From Wigglesworthia glossinidia endosymbiont of Glossina morsitans morsitans (Yale colony) (lineage in GTDB: Bacteria > Pseudomonadota > Gammaproteobacteria > Enterobacterales > Enterobacteriaceae): a DNA stretch of 32,000 bases. Shown here piece after piece: positions 2,071-14,947 of this stretch (position 1 is the stretch's first letter; every line of letters starts with the position of its first letter). The stretch lies in the NCBI RefSeq assembly GCF_000247565.1, contig NC_016893.1, forward strand, positions 90,001 through 122,000. Direction: 5' to 3'. The notes beneath the pieces are model-generated. The model was not told where the DNA came from, made no database searches, and worked only from the letters and a program-made list of their open reading frames with translations. Both the position numbers and the translations under genes were made by a program.

Positions 2071-4482
2071 ATGAAATGTAGTCTATCTTGGTTAAAAGAA
2101 TGGATACAACATAAAAATATAAAATTAAATACAATTATTAATAAAATACAAAAAATAGGACTTGAAATAGATAAAATTTCTCCAATTCTCACTCAATTCT
2201 CTGGCATTAAAATCGGAGAGGTAATTTCCTGTAAAATACATCCCAACAATAAATCATTCAATTTATATTCAATAAATATTGGCAATACGCATACTGTAAA
2301 AATTGTTTCACAATTTAAAAAAAATTTATTACATAAAAAAGTTGCTATCGCTTTGAACGGTGCAAAAATAAAAAAAGATACAATTGTTAAAAACAAAATT
2401 ATATTTGGTAAACAATCAGAAGGTATAATATGCTCGTATGAAGATTTAAAAATTTTTGGAATACAAAAAAAATCTCAAAACATAGTTGTATTTCCTCAAA
2501 CTGCGCCAGTTGGAAAAGATGTAAAAAAATATTTTTTATTAAATGACACGATTTTAGATATTAGTATTACTCCTAATCGCTTTGATTGTCTAAATTTACT
2601 TGGATTATCTAGAGCGATTAAATCACAAGCTAATAATATGTTATTAAAAAAAAAATATTTTAAGCCAATATTACCGACAAATAATATTAAAATTAAAACT
2701 AATATATTTGCTCCAGAAGCATGTCCTAAGTATTTAAGTAGAACAATTACAGATATTAATTTAAACGTAAATACACCAGTATGGATATCAGAAAGATTAA
2801 AAAGATCCGGATATATACCAAAAAATGTTCTTATAGATATTATTTATTATGTTTTTATTGAAACAGGACAACCAATAAAAATATTTGATATGCATAAATC
2901 TTCTTGTAATACAACTATTCGCTATACAAATCAGAATGAACACATAAACGTATCGCAAGAAAAAAAAATATTTTTAGATAAAAATACTCTCGTAATTTCT
3001 AATGAAAATAAAATTTTAGAAATAGCCGGTTTAATTATTAGCAATGACGTAAAAATTAATATAAATACTACAGATATTCTTATATCTGCTGCCTTTTATA
3101 ATGGAAAATTTATTTATGATTTATCAAAAAAATATAACATTCAGTCTGAATTTACAGAAAAATATATAAAAAATATGGTAGATCCAAATATACAATTTCA
3201 AGCTATCGAACGCACTACAGAGCTTATCATAAAATGCTGCCATGGAAGTCCAGGAAAAATAAATTATGTGACTTTCGAGAATTTTTTACCACAAAATAAA
3301 AAAATTAACTTGCGGAAAAATAGAATTAAAAAAGTTTTAGGATTTTTTATTAAGAAATATAAAGTTGAAGAAATATTATATTCATTAAAATATCAACTCA
3401 AACATAAAAAAAATCAATGGAGTGTTATTCCACCTAGTTGGCGTGTATTTAACGTATCTAATGAAATTGATGTAATAAACGATATAGCATGTTTTTATGA
3501 ATTTGAAAAAATTCCATTACAACCAGATATCTCTGGGTTTAATGTACAAAAAAAAATTTTTAAAAATGTTACTTTGTATCCATTAAAGCAATTTTTAGTA
3601 AGTCGTGGATATCAAGAAGTTATAACATATACTTTTGTAGATCCAAAAATTCAAAAAATTTTATATCCAAAAAGATCTGCTATACCAATTATTAATCCAA
3701 TTTCACATGATATGTCTGTTTTAAGATTGTCTTTATGGACTAATTTTATTAAAACTATTTTATATAATCAAAGCAGACAAGTTCATGAAATACGTATCTT
3801 TGAAAGTGGATTTTGTTTTATTCCAAATAAAAAATACACATTTGGTATACATCAAAAATTTGTTATTTCTGGAGCTATATCTGAAAATTCTGTTATGCAT
3901 TGGAAATTAAAAGAAAAATTAGATTTTTATGATGTAAAAGGTGATATAGAAGCTTTAATAGGAATATACAATAATTTAGAATTTTTGAAATTTATATCCT
4001 TTAAAAATTCTATTTTACATCCTGGAAAAAGTGCAAAAATCTTTATTAAAGATAAATGTGTTGGTTTAATTGGAGAAATTAATCCGTTTTTAAAAAAATT
4101 TTTTAAATTAAAAAATAAAATTTTTTTGTTCGAATTATCATGGAAATTAATATCTAATAACTATGTACCAAAAATTCAAAATGTTTCTGATTTTCCATAT
4201 AATCAAAGAGATATTTCCATCATAGTTTCGCATAATATTCCAGCAATGGAGATTATTCGAGCCTGTAAAAATAAAGTTAAAAATAAATTAATTAATATCG
4301 GAATATTTGATTTATATCAAGGAAATAAAATTAAGTATGGATTTAAAAGTATTTCGATACGATTAACTTTACAAGATCAATATACTATGACAAACAAAGA
4401 AATTAATATGATTATAGAAAAATGTATACAAATATTAAAGAATAAATTTAATGCTGAAATTAGACATATTTCTGAAGTTTAA
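2071..4482 (+). CDS. pheT: Phenylalanine--tRNA ligase beta subunit
   Basis: 803 aa (about 795 in E. coli). The N-terminus MKCSLSWLKEW resembles E. coli MKFSELWLREW. It starts 8 nt after pheS, and the pheST pairing is conserved. Confidence 0.95.
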   Translation: MKCSLSWLKEWIQHKNIKLNTIINKIQKIGLEIDKISPILTQFSGIKIGEVISCKIHPNNKSFNLYSINIGNTHTVKIVSQFKKNLLHKKVAIALNGAKIKKDTIVKNKIIFGKQSEGIICSYEDLKIFGIQKKSQNIVVFPQTAPVGKDVKKYFLLNDTILDISITPNRFDCLNLLGLSRAIKSQANNMLLKKKYFKPILPTNNIKIKTNIFAPEACPKYLSRTITDINLNVNTPVWISERLKRSGYIPKNVLIDIIYYVFIETGQPIKIFDMHKSSCNTTIRYTNQNEHINVSQEKKIFLDKNTLVISNENKILEIAGLIISNDVKININTTDILISAAFYNGKFIYDLSKKYNIQSEFTEKYIKNMVDPNIQFQAIERTTELIIKCCHGSPGKINYVTFENFLPQNKKINLRKNRIKKVLGFFIKKYKVEEILYSLKYQLKHKKNQWSVIPPSWRVFNVSNEIDVINDIACFYEFEKIPLQPDISGFNVQKKIFKNVTLYPLKQFLVSRGYQEVITYTFVDPKIQKILYPKRSAIPIINPISHDMSVLRLSLWTNFIKTILYNQSRQVHEIRIFESGFCFIPNKKYTFGIHQKFVISGAISENSVMHWKLKEKLDFYDVKGDIEALIGIYNNLEFLKFISFKNSILHPGKSAKIFIKDKCVGLIGEINPFLKKFFKLKNKIFLFELSWKLISNNYVPKIQNVSDFPYNQRDISIIVSHNIPAMEIIRACKNKVKNKLINIGIFDLYQGNKIKYGFKSISIRLTLQDQYTMTNKEINMIIEKCIQILKNKFNAEIRHISEV

Positions 4483-4602: not shown

Positions 4603-4642
4603 AATAATAAATAATAACGCGTATTATTTATTATTTTTTTTT
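4603..4642 (+). terminator. Candidate intrinsic terminator for pheST: a 14-bp all-A/T perfect inverted repeat followed by T9, overlapping the 3' end of convergent pyrC
   Basis: The left arm aataataaataata (4603-4616) and right arm tattatttattatt (4622-4635) are exact reverse complements, with loop acgcg. The right arm runs into a T9 tract (4634-4642) on the + strand. The stem contains no G-C pairs, so stability is low. Confidence 0.3.
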
Positions 4643-5673
4643 AGCTTAGTAGTCCATTTTAATTTTTTATTAAAAAATAAAGGAACAATAAAATTTTTGT
4701 TATTTGTTTTTAATAAAAATTTTTTTTTCGGTATATGTAAAAATTTAAATAAACTAATTTTTTCTTTATTAAGAGGTAGATTATAAAAACGTGCTCCATT
4801 AATAGAACAAAACGCTTCTAATTTATCTAAAACGTTAAGATTATCAAAAACAGTCGCATACATTTCTAGAGCAATAGGTGCATTAAATATTCCAGCGTAT
4901 CCTAGTTTGCATTCTTTATCAGTGATAAAGTGCGGCGCACTGTCTGTTCCAAGAAAAAAACGTTTACAATTTCCCGATATTGCTGAATGCAATGCAGACT
5001 GGTGCTTTTTATTTTTTAATATAGGTGCACAATACAAATGAGGATTAATTTTATTAGATAACATATCATTATAATTAAACATCAGATGATGTGGGGTAAT
5101 AGTTGCTCCTAAGTATTTTTTTTCTGATATTACATAATCCACTGATTCTTTCGTAGAAATGTGTTCAAGAACGACTTTTAATTGTGGAAAAAATCGACGT
5201 ATTGGTTTCATAATATTTTCAATAAATCTTGATTCTCGATCAAATATATCAATGTTTTTATTATATATTTCTCCATGAATAAGCAAAATCATACCAATTT
5301 TTTGCATTATTTCTAATACTGGAAAAATTTTTTTTATATTATTAATTCCATGATTCGAATTAGTTGTAGTATGGGATAAATACATTTTTGCAGCAATAAA
5401 TATTTTTTCTAAAAATCCTTGAGCAATCATATTTTTATTACAATTTTCTGTTAAATAACAAGTCATAAGAGGTTCAAATTTATGATTTTTTGGTATTTCT
5501 GAATAGATATTTTGTTTGTATTTATATGCTTGTGATAAGTTCGTAATAGGAACAGATAAATTTGGCATAATTACGGCTCTTTGAAAAATACGACTTGTAT
5601 ATGGTAAAACAATTTTTAAAACATCTTTTTCTCTTAAATGTACATGAAAATCATCTGGTTTTATAATAGTCAA
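4624..5673 (-). CDS. pyrC: Dihydroorotase (class II)
   Basis: 349 aa. PDDFHVHLR matches E. coli PDDWHLHLR. Also present are MPNL, LMTCYLT, AAKMY, GTDSAPH, and FNAP..LE.YATVF. The track start at 5673 is a TTG codon, so the true start is uncertain (see findings). Confidence 0.92.
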   Translation of the reverse strand: MTIIKPDDFHVHLREKDVLKIVLPYTSRIFQRAVIMPNLSVPITNLSQAYKYKQNIYSEIPKNHKFEPLMTCYLTENCNKNMIAQGFLEKIFIAAKMYLSHTTTNSNHGINNIKKIFPVLEIMQKIGMILLIHGEIYNKNIDIFDRESRFIENIMKPIRRFFPQLKVVLEHISTKESVDYVISEKKYLGATITPHHLMFNYNDMLSNKINPHLYCAPILKNKKHQSALHSAISGNCKRFFLGTDSAPHFITDKECKLGYAGIFNAPIALEMYATVFDNLNVLDKLEAFCSINGARFYNLPLNKEKISLFKFLHIPKKKFLLKTNNKNFIVPLFFNKKLKWTTKLKKNNK

Positions 5674-5687
5674 AATATCTTGATTCG

Positions 5688-5700
5688 TTTTTTTTTTTTT
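5688..5700 (-). repeat. A13 homopolymer (T13 on + strand) immediately 5' of the pyrC coding frame
   Basis: Counted directly: t5688-t5700, flanked by g5687 and g5701. It lies between an out-of-frame ATG (5723-5721) and the TTG at 5673. Confidence 0.95.
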
Positions 5701-5895: not shown

Positions 5896-8208
5896 CTAAG
5901 ATTTTTTTATTAAAAAGTTATTTTGTCGATATTTAGATGTTTTCTTTCTATTTAACAATCTCAAATATTTAGGAATACGACGAGATCGACTTGTTAATAT
6001 TAATTTGTTTTGTTTTTTTTTGTGTAGATTTTGATTAGTATTTGGTAGTATCTTATCAGATATGTTTAAATTATTTCGTATTAAATTATTTAACATTTTT
6101 TTATTAAAACTATCATGATTATTATGAATTTTATACTCTTTATTATTAATATAATTATTTACTTTACAAGTATAATTTAAAATATTATTATTTTCTTTAT
6201 TTTTTTTTAAAATATCTTTACATACTTCTAATGAATTATTAGTGCAATTTTTAAATTTTTTTTCACGTTCTTTAGAAAATATTTTAGATATAATAGAATT
6301 GTTAAAATGTTTATTAAAAAAACATTCAAGATCTATACATTTAAATTGATTAAAATAATTTAAAACATCATATATTAAATATATGTTATTATTTTTTGAA
6401 TTTAACTCAGTTAAATGATTAAAAAAAATAGTATCATTTTTTTTGAAAAAATTTTTCTGATTTTTTAAAATATAGATTAATGACTTGATGCTATAAATTA
6501 AACTTTTTAATAAATTTTGAGAATACATAATATTACTAAATGATAATAATTTTTTATTTGGAATTTTTTTAGCATGTATTATTTTATTATTCGTAAAATT
6601 ATTTGTTGTATTAGAAGTATCATGGAATTTTATTTCACGTGCACTTTTTTCATAAAAGCAATCTCTATCAGTCTGAGACATATTAGATGCATATAATTTA
6701 GATATTAAATAACTTGGAATGTGTGCTTCATCGCCCGCTTTTACTCTGAAAACTAAATAATGTGGCGTTTGTATACGATCGTTCGGAATAATTATAGCTC
6801 GTACGCCTTTATTACGTTTTTCAATTGCAATCACCGTTTCTCGTTTTTCATTTAACAAATATGATGCAATATTCACTGGGACGATAGCATACACTTCACT
6901 TGTATTATCTTTAATAGATTCTTCTTCAATTAATCGCAAAATAGATAAAGATAGCGATTCGTTATCTCGAATAGTTCCAGTACCACTGCATCTTGGACAA
7001 GCGTAATGACTTGATTCTCTTAAAGATGGACTAATACGTTGCCTAGAAAGCTCTAATAAACCAAATCGAGAAATATGACCTACTTGAATTTTTGCACGAT
7101 CCTGTTTAACAGATTCTTTTAATACACGTTCTACTTCTCTTTGATGTTTTGTAGGCAACATATCGATAAAATCAATTACAATTAAACCACCTAAATCACG
7201 TAATCGCAATTGTCTGACAATTTCTTTTACTGCTTCTAAATTAGTGTTTAAAGCTGTTTCTGAAATATCTCCGCCGCGTGTAGATCGTGAAGAATTAATA
7301 TCAATTGAAGTTAATGCTTCTGTGGTATCTATGAAAATAGATCCTCCAGAAGGCAATTTTACTTCTCTTTGAAAAGCAGATTCAATTTGAGATTCAATTT
7401 GATAATGACTGAATAAAGGCACTTCCCCATTATATAATTTGATTTTTTTCATAAAATCTGGACGACCTAAAGACATTATATAATTTTTTGCTATATTTAA
7501 AATTTTAGGATTATCGATCAATATTTCTCCGATATCAGCACGTAAATAATCACGAAAAGCACGAACAATCACATCATTATCGCTATAAATTAAACATGGT
7601 GCTAATTTATTTTGAGCATCTTTTTTAATTTGTTCCCAATATTTTAAACGTAACGATAAGTCATCTGTAAGTTCTTTAATAGATTTTCCTAATCCGGCAG
7701 TACGTATGATTAAACTCATACCTTCTGGTACAATTAATGATGATAATATTTCTTTAAGTTCTAATCGATCTTCGCCTTCTATATGACGTGAAATACCGCC
7801 AGAATGTGGAGTATTTGGCATAAGCACTAAATAGCTACCCGCAAGACTAATGAATGTAGTCAATGCGGCACCTTTGTTGCCACGTGCTTCCTTTGATATT
7901 TGTATAACAATTTCTTGTCCTTCTTTTAAATGATCTTTAATATTTGAACGTTTACAAGTTACATTTTGATTACTAAAATATTCGAAAGAAATTTCTTTAA
8001 ATGGTAGAAATCCGTGACGTTCTGATCCGTAGTCTATAAATGCTGCTTCTAAACTAGGTTCAATACGTGTAATTTTACCTTTATAAATATTTGATTTTTT
8101 TTGTATATAACTTAAATTTTCAATATCTAAGTCATATAATTTTTGTCCATCTACTAAAGCAATTCTTAGCTCTTCTTGTTGAGTGGCATTAATTAACATT
8201 CTTTTCAT
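5896..8208 (-). CDS. rne: Ribonuclease E (conserved catalytic N-terminal half, non-conserved N/K-rich C-terminal region)
   Basis: 770 aa. The start MKRMLINATQQEELRIALVDGQKLYDLDIE is near-identical to E. coli. The S1 domain (IYKGKITRIEPSLEAAFIDYG), the IDINS and VIDFIDM catalytic region, and the Zn-link CPRCSGTG are all present. It is divergent from rluC as in E. coli. Confidence 0.95.
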   Translation of the reverse strand: MKRMLINATQQEELRIALVDGQKLYDLDIENLSYIQKKSNIYKGKITRIEPSLEAAFIDYGSERHGFLPFKEISFEYFSNQNVTCKRSNIKDHLKEGQEIVIQISKEARGNKGAALTTFISLAGSYLVLMPNTPHSGGISRHIEGEDRLELKEILSSLIVPEGMSLIIRTAGLGKSIKELTDDLSLRLKYWEQIKKDAQNKLAPCLIYSDNDVIVRAFRDYLRADIGEILIDNPKILNIAKNYIMSLGRPDFMKKIKLYNGEVPLFSHYQIESQIESAFQREVKLPSGGSIFIDTTEALTSIDINSSRSTRGGDISETALNTNLEAVKEIVRQLRLRDLGGLIVIDFIDMLPTKHQREVERVLKESVKQDRAKIQVGHISRFGLLELSRQRISPSLRESSHYACPRCSGTGTIRDNESLSLSILRLIEEESIKDNTSEVYAIVPVNIASYLLNEKRETVIAIEKRNKGVRAIIIPNDRIQTPHYLVFRVKAGDEAHIPSYLISKLYASNMSQTDRDCFYEKSAREIKFHDTSNTTNNFTNNKIIHAKKIPNKKLLSFSNIMYSQNLLKSLIYSIKSLIYILKNQKNFFKKNDTIFFNHLTELNSKNNNIYLIYDVLNYFNQFKCIDLECFFNKHFNNSIISKIFSKEREKKFKNCTNNSLEVCKDILKKNKENNNILNYTCKVNNYINNKEYKIHNNHDSFNKKMLNNLIRNNLNISDKILPNTNQNLHKKKQNKLILTSRSRRIPKYLRLLNRKKTSKYRQNNFLIKKS

Positions 8209-12405: not shown

Positions 12406-13209
12406 ATGCGATCTTGGATTAATGGAATTGAAACAGATCAAATTTCTATAAGTAACAGAAGTTTGCAATTTGGAGACGGTTTTTTTACAACATTTATATG
12501 CCGAAATGGACGTATTGAATTTTTAAAAAATCATTTTCACAGATTACTTTTAGCAGAAAAAAAACTTTTTTTTAACAAAATTAATTTTTCCGCCTTACAT
12601 AAAGAAGTTAAATTTGCATCTAAATGCGTATCACATGGAATTATTAAAATTATAATTATACGAGGAAATTCTATACGAGGATATAAAGCAAAACAATGTA
12701 TAGAACCAATACGCATTATCATATTAACAAAAAATAATCTAAATTTTAAAAAAATCAAAAAAAATGGAGCTCATCTATATTATAGTCCTATTAAAATCTC
12801 CAGAAATTTATTATTATCCGGTATTAAGCACAATAACAAAATCGAACAAGTTCTTGCTTCAATACATTTAGAGAATATGCATAAAGATGAAGCAATCATT
12901 TTAGATAATAAAGGATTTATAGTAGAATGTTGTACATGCAATATTTTCTGGAGAATAAAAAATTTCGTATTTACTCCAAATTTGAAATATTGTGGAGTTC
13001 CTGGAATAATTAGAAAAAAAATAATTAATTTGTTACCGAAACTTGGATATAAAATAATTGTTTCTTTTTTTAAAAGACAACATTTATTTTCTGCAGAAGA
13101 AGTTTTTATTACTAACTCTATATTTTCTATTATTCCCGTAAAATTAATTGAAAATAAACATTTTCTCGATCGTACTACATTTAAAAAAATACGTTATTTT
13201 TTTTGGTAA
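12406..13209 (+). CDS. pabC: Aminodeoxychorismate lyase
   Basis: 267 aa (269 in E. coli). INGIETDQISISNRSLQFGDGFFTT resembles INGHKQESLAVSDRATQFGDGCFTT. GIKHNNKIEQVLA resembles GIKHLNRLEQVLI, and ECCTCNIFW resembles ECCAANLFW. Its position between acpP and mltG is as in E. coli. Confidence 0.88.
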   Translation: MRSWINGIETDQISISNRSLQFGDGFFTTFICRNGRIEFLKNHFHRLLLAEKKLFFNKINFSALHKEVKFASKCVSHGIIKIIIIRGNSIRGYKAKQCIEPIRIIILTKNNLNFKKIKKNGAHLYYSPIKISRNLLLSGIKHNNKIEQVLASIHLENMHKDEAIILDNKGFIVECCTCNIFWRIKNFVFTPNLKYCGVPGIIRKKIINLLPKLGYKIIVSFFKRQHLFSAEEVFITNSIFSIIPVKLIENKHFLDRTTFKKIRYFFW

Positions 13210-13222
13210 AATAAACTTGTAT

Positions 13223-14256
13223 ATGCAAATTATATATAAAATAAAAAAACAAAAAATATTTTTTATATATTTGTTTTTGATAATTTTTATTTTTTTTTTA
13301 AGATACATGTTTTTTCTATAGAACCTTTAAACATTAGCAAAGAAACCTTAATTACTATACCAAAAGGAAGCACTATATTTTATTTAAAAAAATTTATGGA
13401 AAAAAAAAATATTAAAAATAATTTATATTTGCTACCTTTTTTAATTAAAATTAATCCTAGTCTAAAGAATATTAAATCTGGAACATATGCTTTATATCCA
13501 GGAATGAATATGAAAGATGCCTTTAATATGTTTGTATCAGGCAAAGAAAAACAATTTTCTATTCGATTTATTGAAGGTTCAACTTTAAAAGATTGCTTAA
13601 AAATTTTAAAAAATTCTCCGTATATACAGCAAGATATAGATTTCAATAATTTACACAACTTATCAAAACAATTAGGTGAAAAATCCGATATATTGTTAGA
13701 AGGGAATCTTTATCCAGATACATATTTACACACTAAAAACACTAAAGCAAGTGAAATACTAAAACGTGCAAAAAATAATATGAAAAAAATTTTAGAAAAA
13801 ATTTGGGATACACGAGATCAAAATTTACCGTACGATTCACCTCAATCGCTATTAATCATGGCATCTATTATTGAAAAAGAATCGCCATTAAAACAAGAAC
13901 GTTTTCTAATTTCTTCTGTATTTGTTAATCGATTAAATAACAAAATGAAATTGCAATCAGATCCTACTGTAGAATATGGATTAAAACTTCTAAAACCTAA
14001 TAAAAAAATGACTTATAAAGATCTCAAAATACCTACTCCTTATAATACATACATTATTTCTGGATTACCAAAAACAGCAATATCTATGCCTAGTTTTGAA
14101 TCAATCAAAGCAGCTGCACATCCAGAAAAAAGTAATTATTTTTATTTTGTTTCTACTGGATACGGCAATCATATTTTTAATCATGATTTTGATAGCCATA
14201 AAAAAGCAGTGAAAAATTATCGCAAATGGAAAAAGGAAATAAATAGTGCACGGTAA
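13223..14256 (+). CDS. mltG: Endolytic murein transglycosylase MltG/YceG, reading frame interrupted at a T10 tract (a -1 shift or an 11th U is needed to join the two parts)
   Basis: The track ORF 13396-14256 (286 aa) matches the E. coli MltG body ([31 protein letters not shown]...[20 protein letters not shown]). That same frame stays open and homologous back to 13240 ([25 protein letters not shown] versus E. coli [25 protein letters not shown]) but contains no ATG, GTG or TTG. The ATG at 13223, 13 nt after pabC, opens a different frame encoding a TM-like helix, [25 protein letters not shown]. That frame stops at 13319-13321. The two frames meet in T10 (13290-13299), and the joined product would be 344 aa versus 340 in E. 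coli. Confidence 0.85.
13290..13299 (+). repeat. T10 homopolymer at the mltG frame junction (U UUU UUA in the upstream frame)
   Basis: Counted directly: a13289, t13290-t13299, a13300. The upstream-frame codons are ttt (13295-97) and tta (13298-13300). Confidence 0.95.
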
Positions 14257-14947
14257 ATTTATTGTTATCGAAGGATTAGAAGGCTCCGGAAAAACTAATG
14301 CTATTTCGAAAGTAGTAAATATATTAAATCTACAAGGAATAAAAAACGTAATTTTTACAAGAGAGCCAGGAGGAACTCCACTTGCAGAAGCTTTACGAAC
14401 ATTGATTAAAGAAGGTGTAGGTTATGAGCCAATTACTAACCATGCTGAATTATTAATGTTATATGCTGCCCGTATACAATTAGTAGAACGCATAATTAAA
14501 CCAGCTTTAAGCCAAGGCTCTTGGGTAGTTGGAGATCGACATGACCTATCTTCTTTAGCGTATCAAGGAGGAGGAAGGTGTATAAACGAAAAATTGTTAA
14601 AAACTTTAAGAGATGCTTTTTTAGGAGATTTTTATCCGGATTTTACTTTATATTTAGATATACCACCTGTAATGGGATTAGCTAGAATTAGGGCACGTGC
14701 TACAGTTAGAGCGCAAATCAGAGAAAAAATGCACAAAATAAAAAGAGCACACTCACATGATATAAAAAATGAATTAGATAGAATAGAAGTAGAACCTATC
14801 TCATTTTTTGATAGAACAAGAGCGCGTTATTTAGAATTAGCTAAAAAAAATAAGAATATTGTTACTATTGATGCTAGTCAGTCTTTAGAACAAGTAAATT
14901 TAGAAATAAAAGAAAAATTATTAAATTGGTTAAAAATTCAAAATTAA
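14246..14947 (+). CDS. tmk: Thymidylate kinase (with an approx. 23-aa insertion in the LID region)
   Basis: 233 aa (213 in E. coli). It starts at GTG and overlaps the mltG stop by 11 nt, with AAGGA at 14233-14237. Conserved motifs include [12 protein letters not shown] (P-loop), [40 protein letters not shown], and [12 protein letters not shown]. Confidence 0.95.

Follow-up and report, generated by a model that had tools for sequence, protein, structure and literature searches.

How might a gene whose membrane anchor and enzyme body lie in different reading frames still yield a working protein? The question is posed by mltG, the gene for the cell-wall enzyme MltG (also called YceG), in the Wigglesworthia glossinidia endosymbiont of Glossina morsitans morsitans (WGM; Yale colony). 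We analyzed 32,000 nucleotides (nt) of its genome (contig NC_016893.1, positions 90,001 to 122,000, forward strand), which we call the window. There, a run of ten T residues (T10) parts an N-terminal signal-anchor from the catalytic domain by a -1 frame change. We suggest, with a probability of about 0.6, that this frameshift is tolerated through slippage of RNA polymerase on the run, by analogy with Buchnera and Blochmannia.

The frame change in mltG and its state in related symbionts

The coordinates of the split gene given in the original prediction all hold: an ATG at 13223, a stop at 13319-13321, a -1 frame open from 13240, the T10 at 13290-13299, and a first start codon of the -1 frame at 13396. 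Reading through the codons of this frame, we found no ATG, GTG, or TTG upstream of 13396, and its stop lies at 14254-14256. One T added at the tract creates a single open reading frame (ORF) of 1035 nt and 344 codons. The fused protein matches the Pfam family YceG (PF02618) with E = 3.6e-76 and 256.7 bits (cutoff, 32.4), and its residues 44-331 cover positions 1-274 of the 275 in the profile. Because the match begins at residue 44, the domain starts near 13351, upstream of the ATG at 13396, and homology continues across the gap as the original prediction had claimed. The E. coli YceG structure (PDB 2r1f) is matched with E = 4.4e-67, and both sequences contain the block MASIIEKE. E. coli MltG is an inner-membrane endolytic murein transglycosylase with the catalytic residue E218 (Yunck et al. 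2016 via PMC8135044). By residue numbering mapped by hand, this glutamate lies in an IIEKE(T/S) motif and is conserved in the window. Proteins named 'endolytic transglycosylase MltG [Wigglesworthia glossinidia]' match the MltG body of the window at 100% identity.

We then compared the tract across five lineages, of which the window, a Sanger genome, has T10 and the split. W. brevipalpis (L003, BA000021) has T11 at 3089-3099 and an intact gene that encodes 348 amino acids (aa) in one frame (...ILYLLILIPIFFFRLFIFERESL...), with an in-frame transmembrane (TM) segment. The closest relative of the window, L004 (a 155-kb contig of Logan SRR14633898, about 7% divergent in nucleotides), has T11 at 3068-3078 and an intact gene of 344 aa (P0123). 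Its junction reads IFIFFFKMHIF; one extra U had been predicted to join the two halves into 344 aa, and L004 encodes just such a protein with the expected junction, IFIFFFK. The G. palpalis gambiensis symbiont (L002, SRR21669497) has T10 at 3018-3027 and the same split, with an upstream ORF, MTILYKTKKQKISFIYAWILTLIFFLKYMFFL, that ends at the same TAG, and the body in the -1 frame. That sequence comes from Illumina data at more than 1,400x, assembled with SPAdes (PMC10868223), and the 325-aa call that results from the split is carried by three contigs. The G. pallidipes symbiont (L009 to L012, four Logan runs) also has T10; L010 reads TA-T10-AAAATACAT, so that the tract is flanked as A-T10-A. 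This lineage was assigned by its Tmk, which is identical to the 'Glossina pallidipes' UniRef entry, and its upstream ORF starts on contig L007 with MQTVYKVNKQKI... The comparison of sister lineages proposed in the original prediction therefore finds both states, T11 with an intact gene (L003 and L004) and T10 (L002 and L010).

Distances for mltG and tmk arrange the five lineages as (((window, L004), pallidipes), palpalis), brevipalpis, and the tract states in this order are T10, T11, T10, T10, and T11. The T11 and the intact gene of W. brevipalpis and L004 show that T10 arose from an ancestral T11 by loss of one base. If the T was lost once, in the common ancestor of the Morsitans- and Palpalis-group symbionts, and regained once, in L004, two steps suffice; three independent losses require three. 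A shared, old loss would thus be the more parsimonious history, though homopolymers mutate fast and the evidence is weak. Under either history, T10 is a genuine, repeatedly observed state of the site.

In every lineage recovered, frame 0 upstream of the tract keeps a Lys-rich and then hydrophobic pattern, and the -1 frame does not; in L002, frame 0 reads ISFIYAWILTLIFF, with TM character, and the -1 frame reads MDININFFF. The window, L004, and L002 share a distance of 67 nt from the ATG to the tract. In the genomic sequence of the window there is no single TM anchor continuous with the enzyme body, since the two lie in different frames; continuity appears once a T is added, and in the relatives L004 and L003. 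The best 19-residue Kyte-Doolittle mean is 2.63 for the fused window protein, in line with the N-terminal TM anchor claimed earlier, 1.92 for the fused palpalis protein, and at most 1.01 for the annotated N termini. The original prediction had named as contrary evidence relatives without a conserved TM frame, whose MltG begins at the position matching 13396. This is not what we found, as the relatives carry the TM segment in frame.

Pairwise ratios of nonsynonymous to synonymous substitutions (dN/dS), calculated by the Nei-Gojobori method, are low for mltG: 0.086 for window-L004, 0.116 for window-pallidipes, 0.149 for window-palpalis, and 0.164 for pallidipes-palpalis, with dS of 0.37-0.69. 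Among the T10 lineages, the range is 0.116-0.164 at dS 0.57-0.69. The values for neighboring genes are 0.04-0.11 for tmk and from 0 (acpP) to 0.41 for the others. With palpalis as the outgroup, dN/dS is 0.093 on the window branch versus 0.081 on the branch of the intact L004. The 318 codons after the tract contain no stop and no out-of-frame indel in any T10 lineage, and all indels there are in frame. Codons 27-58, which span the tract to ATG 13396, have a dN/dS of 0.20 in the two fully sequenced T10 lineages (Fisher p = 0.004). This constraint means that translation must begin upstream of 13396. Judged by its codon substitutions, mltG is not decaying and is under purifying selection like its neighbors, and the gene is most likely not dead.

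Explanations for the split gene

We suggest that a deletion from T11 to T10 parted the signal-anchor (13223-13299) from the periplasmic YceG body (13300-14256) and that RNA polymerase, slipping on the 10-A template run, would produce a minority of U11 transcripts and some U8 transcripts. Translation of U11 would yield a 344-aa, membrane-anchored MltG with the junction IFIFFFK, and the U8 product would have one Phe fewer. An unstimulated -1 ribosomal slip on U UUU UUA, with the junction IFIFFL-KIHVF, may add a small amount. The junction residue would differ by route, Phe indicating the transcriptional and Leu the ribosomal one. Without a shift, a hydrophobic peptide of 32 aa is predicted. Both the occurrence of slippage in Wigglesworthia and its role in the rescue are proposed by analogy. 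There is good documentation of slippage at A/T runs of at least nine; among the frameshifted transcripts of Buchnera cell-wall genes and of a Blochmannia gene, it corrects 12-50% (Tamas et al. 2008 in PMC5009743). Williams & Wernegreen (PMC3017870) treat homopolymer frameshifts that are conserved in otherwise intact Blochmannia genes as functional, and the slippage idea has been raised for other WGM genes (Rio et al., PMC3280448).

Several points weigh against rescue by slippage. A/T runs are equally frequent in coding and noncoding Wigglesworthia DNA, which suggests that slippage may not occur there (Baranov et al., PMC1088944). The mltG frame in the pallidipes symbiont is taken from the ATG-to-tract distance, as 27 nt between L007 and L010 are unrecovered. 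The 26 upstream codons have a dN/dS of 0.7 between distant lineages and 0.8 (range 0.7-1.0) also between intact ones, and this short segment, a weakly constrained TM stretch, is uninformative. The gene had been called essential, and this does not stand: E. coli MltG is dispensable (PMC8135044), so that loss would be tolerable. The more reduced and more distant symbiont L008 (Logan SRR32934261; PabC 47% identical) has lost the gene from this position, with the order fabH-fabD-fabG-acpP-pabC-tmk-holB-tatD and a 164-nt spacer at the mltG position between pabC and tmk (L008:3813-3977). Homopolymer indels are frequent, three recent independent losses are conceivable, and the low dN/dS would then be less telling. 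Dispensability, loss in L008, and fast tract change would all suit a young or tolerated pseudogene, with a real T10, too little full-length protein to be of use, and an ORF that looks intact because the deletions are recent or decay is slow. Ongoing minor gene degradation has been reported in WGM, with 1-2 indel frameshifts in 6 of 11 pseudogenes (Rio et al., PMC3280448). We regard a pseudogene as unlikely, if worth serious thought, because T10 occurs in three of the five lineages, yet their 318 codons are free of stops and frameshifting indels, and dN/dS among them is 0.12-0.16 at dS of about 0.6-0.7. Moreover, the window branch shows no relaxation relative to the intact L004 branch, and every recovered copy of the segment retains the upstream ATG, a 67-nt spacing, and TM character. 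The T10 of the window also comes from one Sanger assembly at 9.4x, made from DNA amplified by multiple displacement amplification and from Ex-Taq PCR templates; its nearest relative has T11, and no independent same-strain contig spans the tract. Looking up Tmk gave two contigs 100% identical to the window, L005, which begins at the first T of the tract, and L006, which begins downstream; looking up AcpP gave L015, which ends before pabC; and looking up the exact PabC product for independent same-strain contigs gave no record. A sequencing or assembly error in an ordinary T11 gene is nonetheless improbable, since T10 is also present in the palpalis symbiont (deep Illumina data, three contigs) and the pallidipes symbiont. 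In addition, the stated finished accuracy is less than 1 error per 10,000 bases, and a collection of 15 billion proteins holds no T11 or T8 version of the WGM protein.

Two further explanations keep the T10 and place the solution in translation. The original prediction had listed a gene dependent on slippage or programmed -1 frameshifting, a young pseudogene, and an anchorless MltG; the list was right, but it put too much weight on programmed frameshifting and essentiality. The heptamer T TTT TTA at 13294-13300 is phased in frame 0 as claimed, it equals the U6A motif of human immunodeficiency virus type 1 (HIV-1; PMC5737442), and T10 followed by A is kept in three lineages. However, T10 plus A yields this heptamer automatically, and any T10 holds an X XXY YYZ pattern in every phase. 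The downstream fold is weaker than that of shuffled sequences (z = +1.34 for 100 nt and +0.47 for 50 nt), the consensus fold of four lineages has -0.97 kcal/mol and zero covariation, and an Rfam search returned zero matches. No Shine-Dalgarno-like stimulator (GGAG or AGGA) was found within 30 nt upstream, and E. coli heptamers without stimulators reach only 2-10x over a background of about 0.055% (PMC4066793). L004 and W. brevipalpis read through in one frame with T11, and the shift is thus not a conserved recoding design. It is therefore very unlikely that full-length MltG is made chiefly by programmed frameshifting on U UUU UUA, and the weight that had been placed on the HIV-like heptamer is not supported. 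We give hardly any credence to an anchorless or alternatively started protein as the functional product. Exactly such products, from ATG 13396, ATA 13267, or ATA 13303, are annotated in GenBank and RefSeq, and L002 has a -1-frame ATG 27 nt upstream of the Lys codon after the tract. However, the annotated N termini are not TM-like (at most 1.01 versus 2.63 when fused) in an inner-membrane enzyme whose catalytic domain must reach the periplasm. A start at ATG 13396, the anchorless form suggested earlier, would also remove the constrained codons 27-58 and the beginning of the YceG profile. Upstream of the tract, the lineages do not conserve the -1-frame sequence, and the three annotations are mutually inconsistent.

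If transcriptional slippage does rescue mltG, the frameshift might itself have been selected. In this scenario, which we regard as a long shot, T10 would be a dosage throttle that predates the split of the Morsitans and Palpalis symbionts and limits anchored MltG to slipped transcripts, and T10/T11 toggling in L004 would be a heritable switch. The frameshift would then have been kept for tens of millions of years, and the switch would set the level of cell-wall remodeling. In E. coli, excess MltG is lethal without PBP1B (PMC8135044), and a reduced symbiont with a pared-down synthase set could therefore benefit from a throttle. 

The T10/T11 pair at about 7% divergence (the window and L004), together with two further T10 lineages, forms a natural experiment on the protein cost of a frameshift and selection on it. 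Because Wigglesworthia peptidoglycan matters for tsetse immunity and vector competence, the dosage of MltG, a glycan-strand terminase, is of some relevance to the host.

Locus layout and annotations

The window has a GC content of 22-26% (about 24% overall) and the gene order fabD-fabG-acpP-pabC-mltG-tmk-holB-tatD-hinT, which includes the enterobacterial synteny pabC-mltG-tmk-holB. The order pabC-mltG-tmk-holB-tatD is held across the loci compared, except in W. brevipalpis, which lacks pabC, and L008, which lacks mltG. The positions of the features are collected in the table.

Table. Features of the mltG locus, in window coordinates
Feature	Position	Strand	Evidence or remark
pabC (aminodeoxychorismate lyase), upstream neighbor	12406..13209	+	Pfam Aminotran_4, E = 2.5e-37; stop codon 13207-13209
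mltG 5' segment, frame 0: ATG, Lys-rich KIKKQK, hydrophobic signal-anchor, 26 codons	13223..13299	+	Translation; hydropathy; alignment to the in-frame N termini of L004 and W. brevipalpis MltG
ATA start of RefSeq WP_081469461.1 (P0001), 329 aa	13267..13269	+	Noncanonical, without TM anchor; hydropathy 1.01
T10 homopolymer, site of the frame change	13290..13299	+	One T short of the T11 in intact relatives
T TTT TTA heptamer, phased for a -1 slip in frame 0	13294..13300	+	Codons TTT 13295 and TTA 13298
mltG body, -1 frame: linker/LysM-like region and YceG catalytic domain, IIEKE motif kept	13300..14256	+	Pfam YceG; PDB 2r1f match; dN/dS
ATA start of RefSeq WP_236607862.1 (P0121), 317 aa, MHVFSIEPL...	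13303..13305	+	Hydropathy 0.65
TAG closing the unshifted frame 0 (32-aa hydrophobic peptide)	13319..13321	+	Translation; same TAG in L002
First canonical -1-frame start; original GenBank AFA40959.1, 286 aa, 'putative aminodeoxychorismate lyase'	13396..13398	+	Drops the first ~15 YceG profile positions
A10 run within mltG, in frame (ATG GAA AAA AAA AAT), 100 nt past T10	13400..13409	+	Second slippage-prone tract; A10 also in L004 and L002
tmk, downstream neighbor; GTG start, overlaps mltG end by 11 nt (14246-14256)	14246..14947	+	Pfam Thymidylate_kin

Three conflicting products are recorded for this one locus (286, 317, and 329 aa); two start from ATA, and none of the three contains the membrane anchor. 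Rather than mark the frameshift, the annotation pipelines bypassed it. Rio et al. defined pseudogenes by a truncation of at least 50% (PMC3280448); AFA40959.1, with 286 of about 340 residues, would therefore fall outside that definition. The main text of Rio et al. 2012 (PMC3280448) does not mention yceG, and our literature search found no paper connecting Wigglesworthia with yceG or mltG. The T10 frameshift is probably a previously unannotated case of the known endosymbiont homopolymer-frameshift phenomenon. We propose annotating it, following the practice for Blochmannia, as a 344-codon coding sequence (CDS) that contains a homopolymer frameshift.

The PabC of the window is 100% identical to P0124, from the W. 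glossinidia morsitans genome, and the mltG ATG follows the pabC stop by 13 nt. pabC is present in the window, L004, L002, and L007; in W. brevipalpis, it is absent and acpP is followed directly by mltG (L003:2888-3001). Such a distribution fits the report of Rio et al. 2012 (PMC3280448), which described folate and chorismate genes specific to WGM. mltG and tmk overlap or abut in L004, L002, and L003 as well, and the overlap suggests translational coupling inside the pabC-mltG-tmk-holB cluster. If RNA polymerase slips on 10-mers, the A10 at 13400-13409 would spoil part of the transcripts rescued at T10. A/T runs of at least 10 are frequent, with nine in the 32-kb window (seven A runs and two T runs). 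The longest homopolymer of the window is a T13 at 5688-5700, in the spacer between the minus-strand ORFs 4624-5673 and 5896-8208. A scan of the whole window for other A/T-run splits that could be mended by +1 or -1 base gave two artefactual joins only.

Five Logan contigs (L005 and L009 to L012), from five runs and two host species, have 5' ends at or within the T tract (window 13288-13292). We considered the contig breaks as a sign of mixed T10 and T11 reads or of slippage and rejected this idea: L010 and L012 break off at A7 runs on their 3' side, and other contig ends lie in ordinary sequence. The breaks are probably technical, caused by de Bruijn-graph breakage at homopolymers in low-coverage, AT-rich sequence. 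Two UniRef entries filed under tsetse flies proved to be Wigglesworthia proteins. In A0A1B0C4W8 (P0251, 'Acyl carrier protein, mitochondrial', G. palpalis gambiensis, 559 aa), AcpP, the MltG body, and Tmk are joined into one chimeric protein, and A0A1A9Z192 (P0249, 'dTMP kinase', G. pallidipes) is a symbiont sequence filed as a tsetse gene. The host genome assemblies therefore contain symbiont DNA. A scan of genome contigs with the fused protein gave only an unrelated Paceibacterota locus and no Wigglesworthia genome, and a scan of metagenome contigs with a conserved 27-mer adjoining the tract gave zero matches.

Comparison with known systems

The mltG of the window shares with E. coli MltG/YceG the domain, the aligned IIEKE motif, and the pabC-mltG-tmk-holB synteny, and, once the frames are joined, an N-terminal Lys-rich stretch followed by a hydrophobic anchor. 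It differs in that its CDS is broken by a -1 frame change and in that its TM segment is very rich in Phe and Ile because of AT bias. Like HIV-1 gag-pol (U UUU UUA) and E. coli dnaX (A AAA AAG), mltG has a phased heptamer and a -1 relation between two ORFs. Unlike them, it has neither a downstream stem-loop or pseudoknot nor an upstream Shine-Dalgarno-like element, its shift is not conserved, and one useful product is expected rather than two. In the tssM gene of Citrobacter rodentium (PMC4256274), and in Shigella mxiE and insertion sequence (IS) elements (PMC1088944), an A/T run interrupts the frame and full-length protein arises from indel transcripts, as we predict for mltG. Those cases are experimentally proven and sometimes yield two functional length variants, whereas no second functional product is evident for mltG.

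The closest parallel to slippage rescue in mltG is with the rescued frameshifts of Buchnera and Blochmannia. The mltG case differs from them in that its run is poly(T) rather than poly(A) on the coding strand. In addition, the break falls between signal-anchor and enzyme, so that the unshifted product would be both truncated and mislocalized, and the mltG frameshift is hidden by the database annotations. Conserved frameshifts in Blochmannia were reportedly also described by Wernegreen et al. in 2010. In all of these symbionts, the genome is AT-rich and reduced, a single-base indel lies in an A/T run of at least 10, the gene is otherwise intact and under purifying selection, and the frameshift is found in several host-restricted lineages, for mltG through shared ancestry or through recurrence. 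The Buchnera cases, like mltG, concern cell-wall genes; the Blochmannia case is a his gene. The Wigglesworthia genome papers raise the possibility of slippage only generally, and mltG would extend the pattern of slippage-rescued frameshifts from the symbionts of aphids and ants to that of the tsetse fly.

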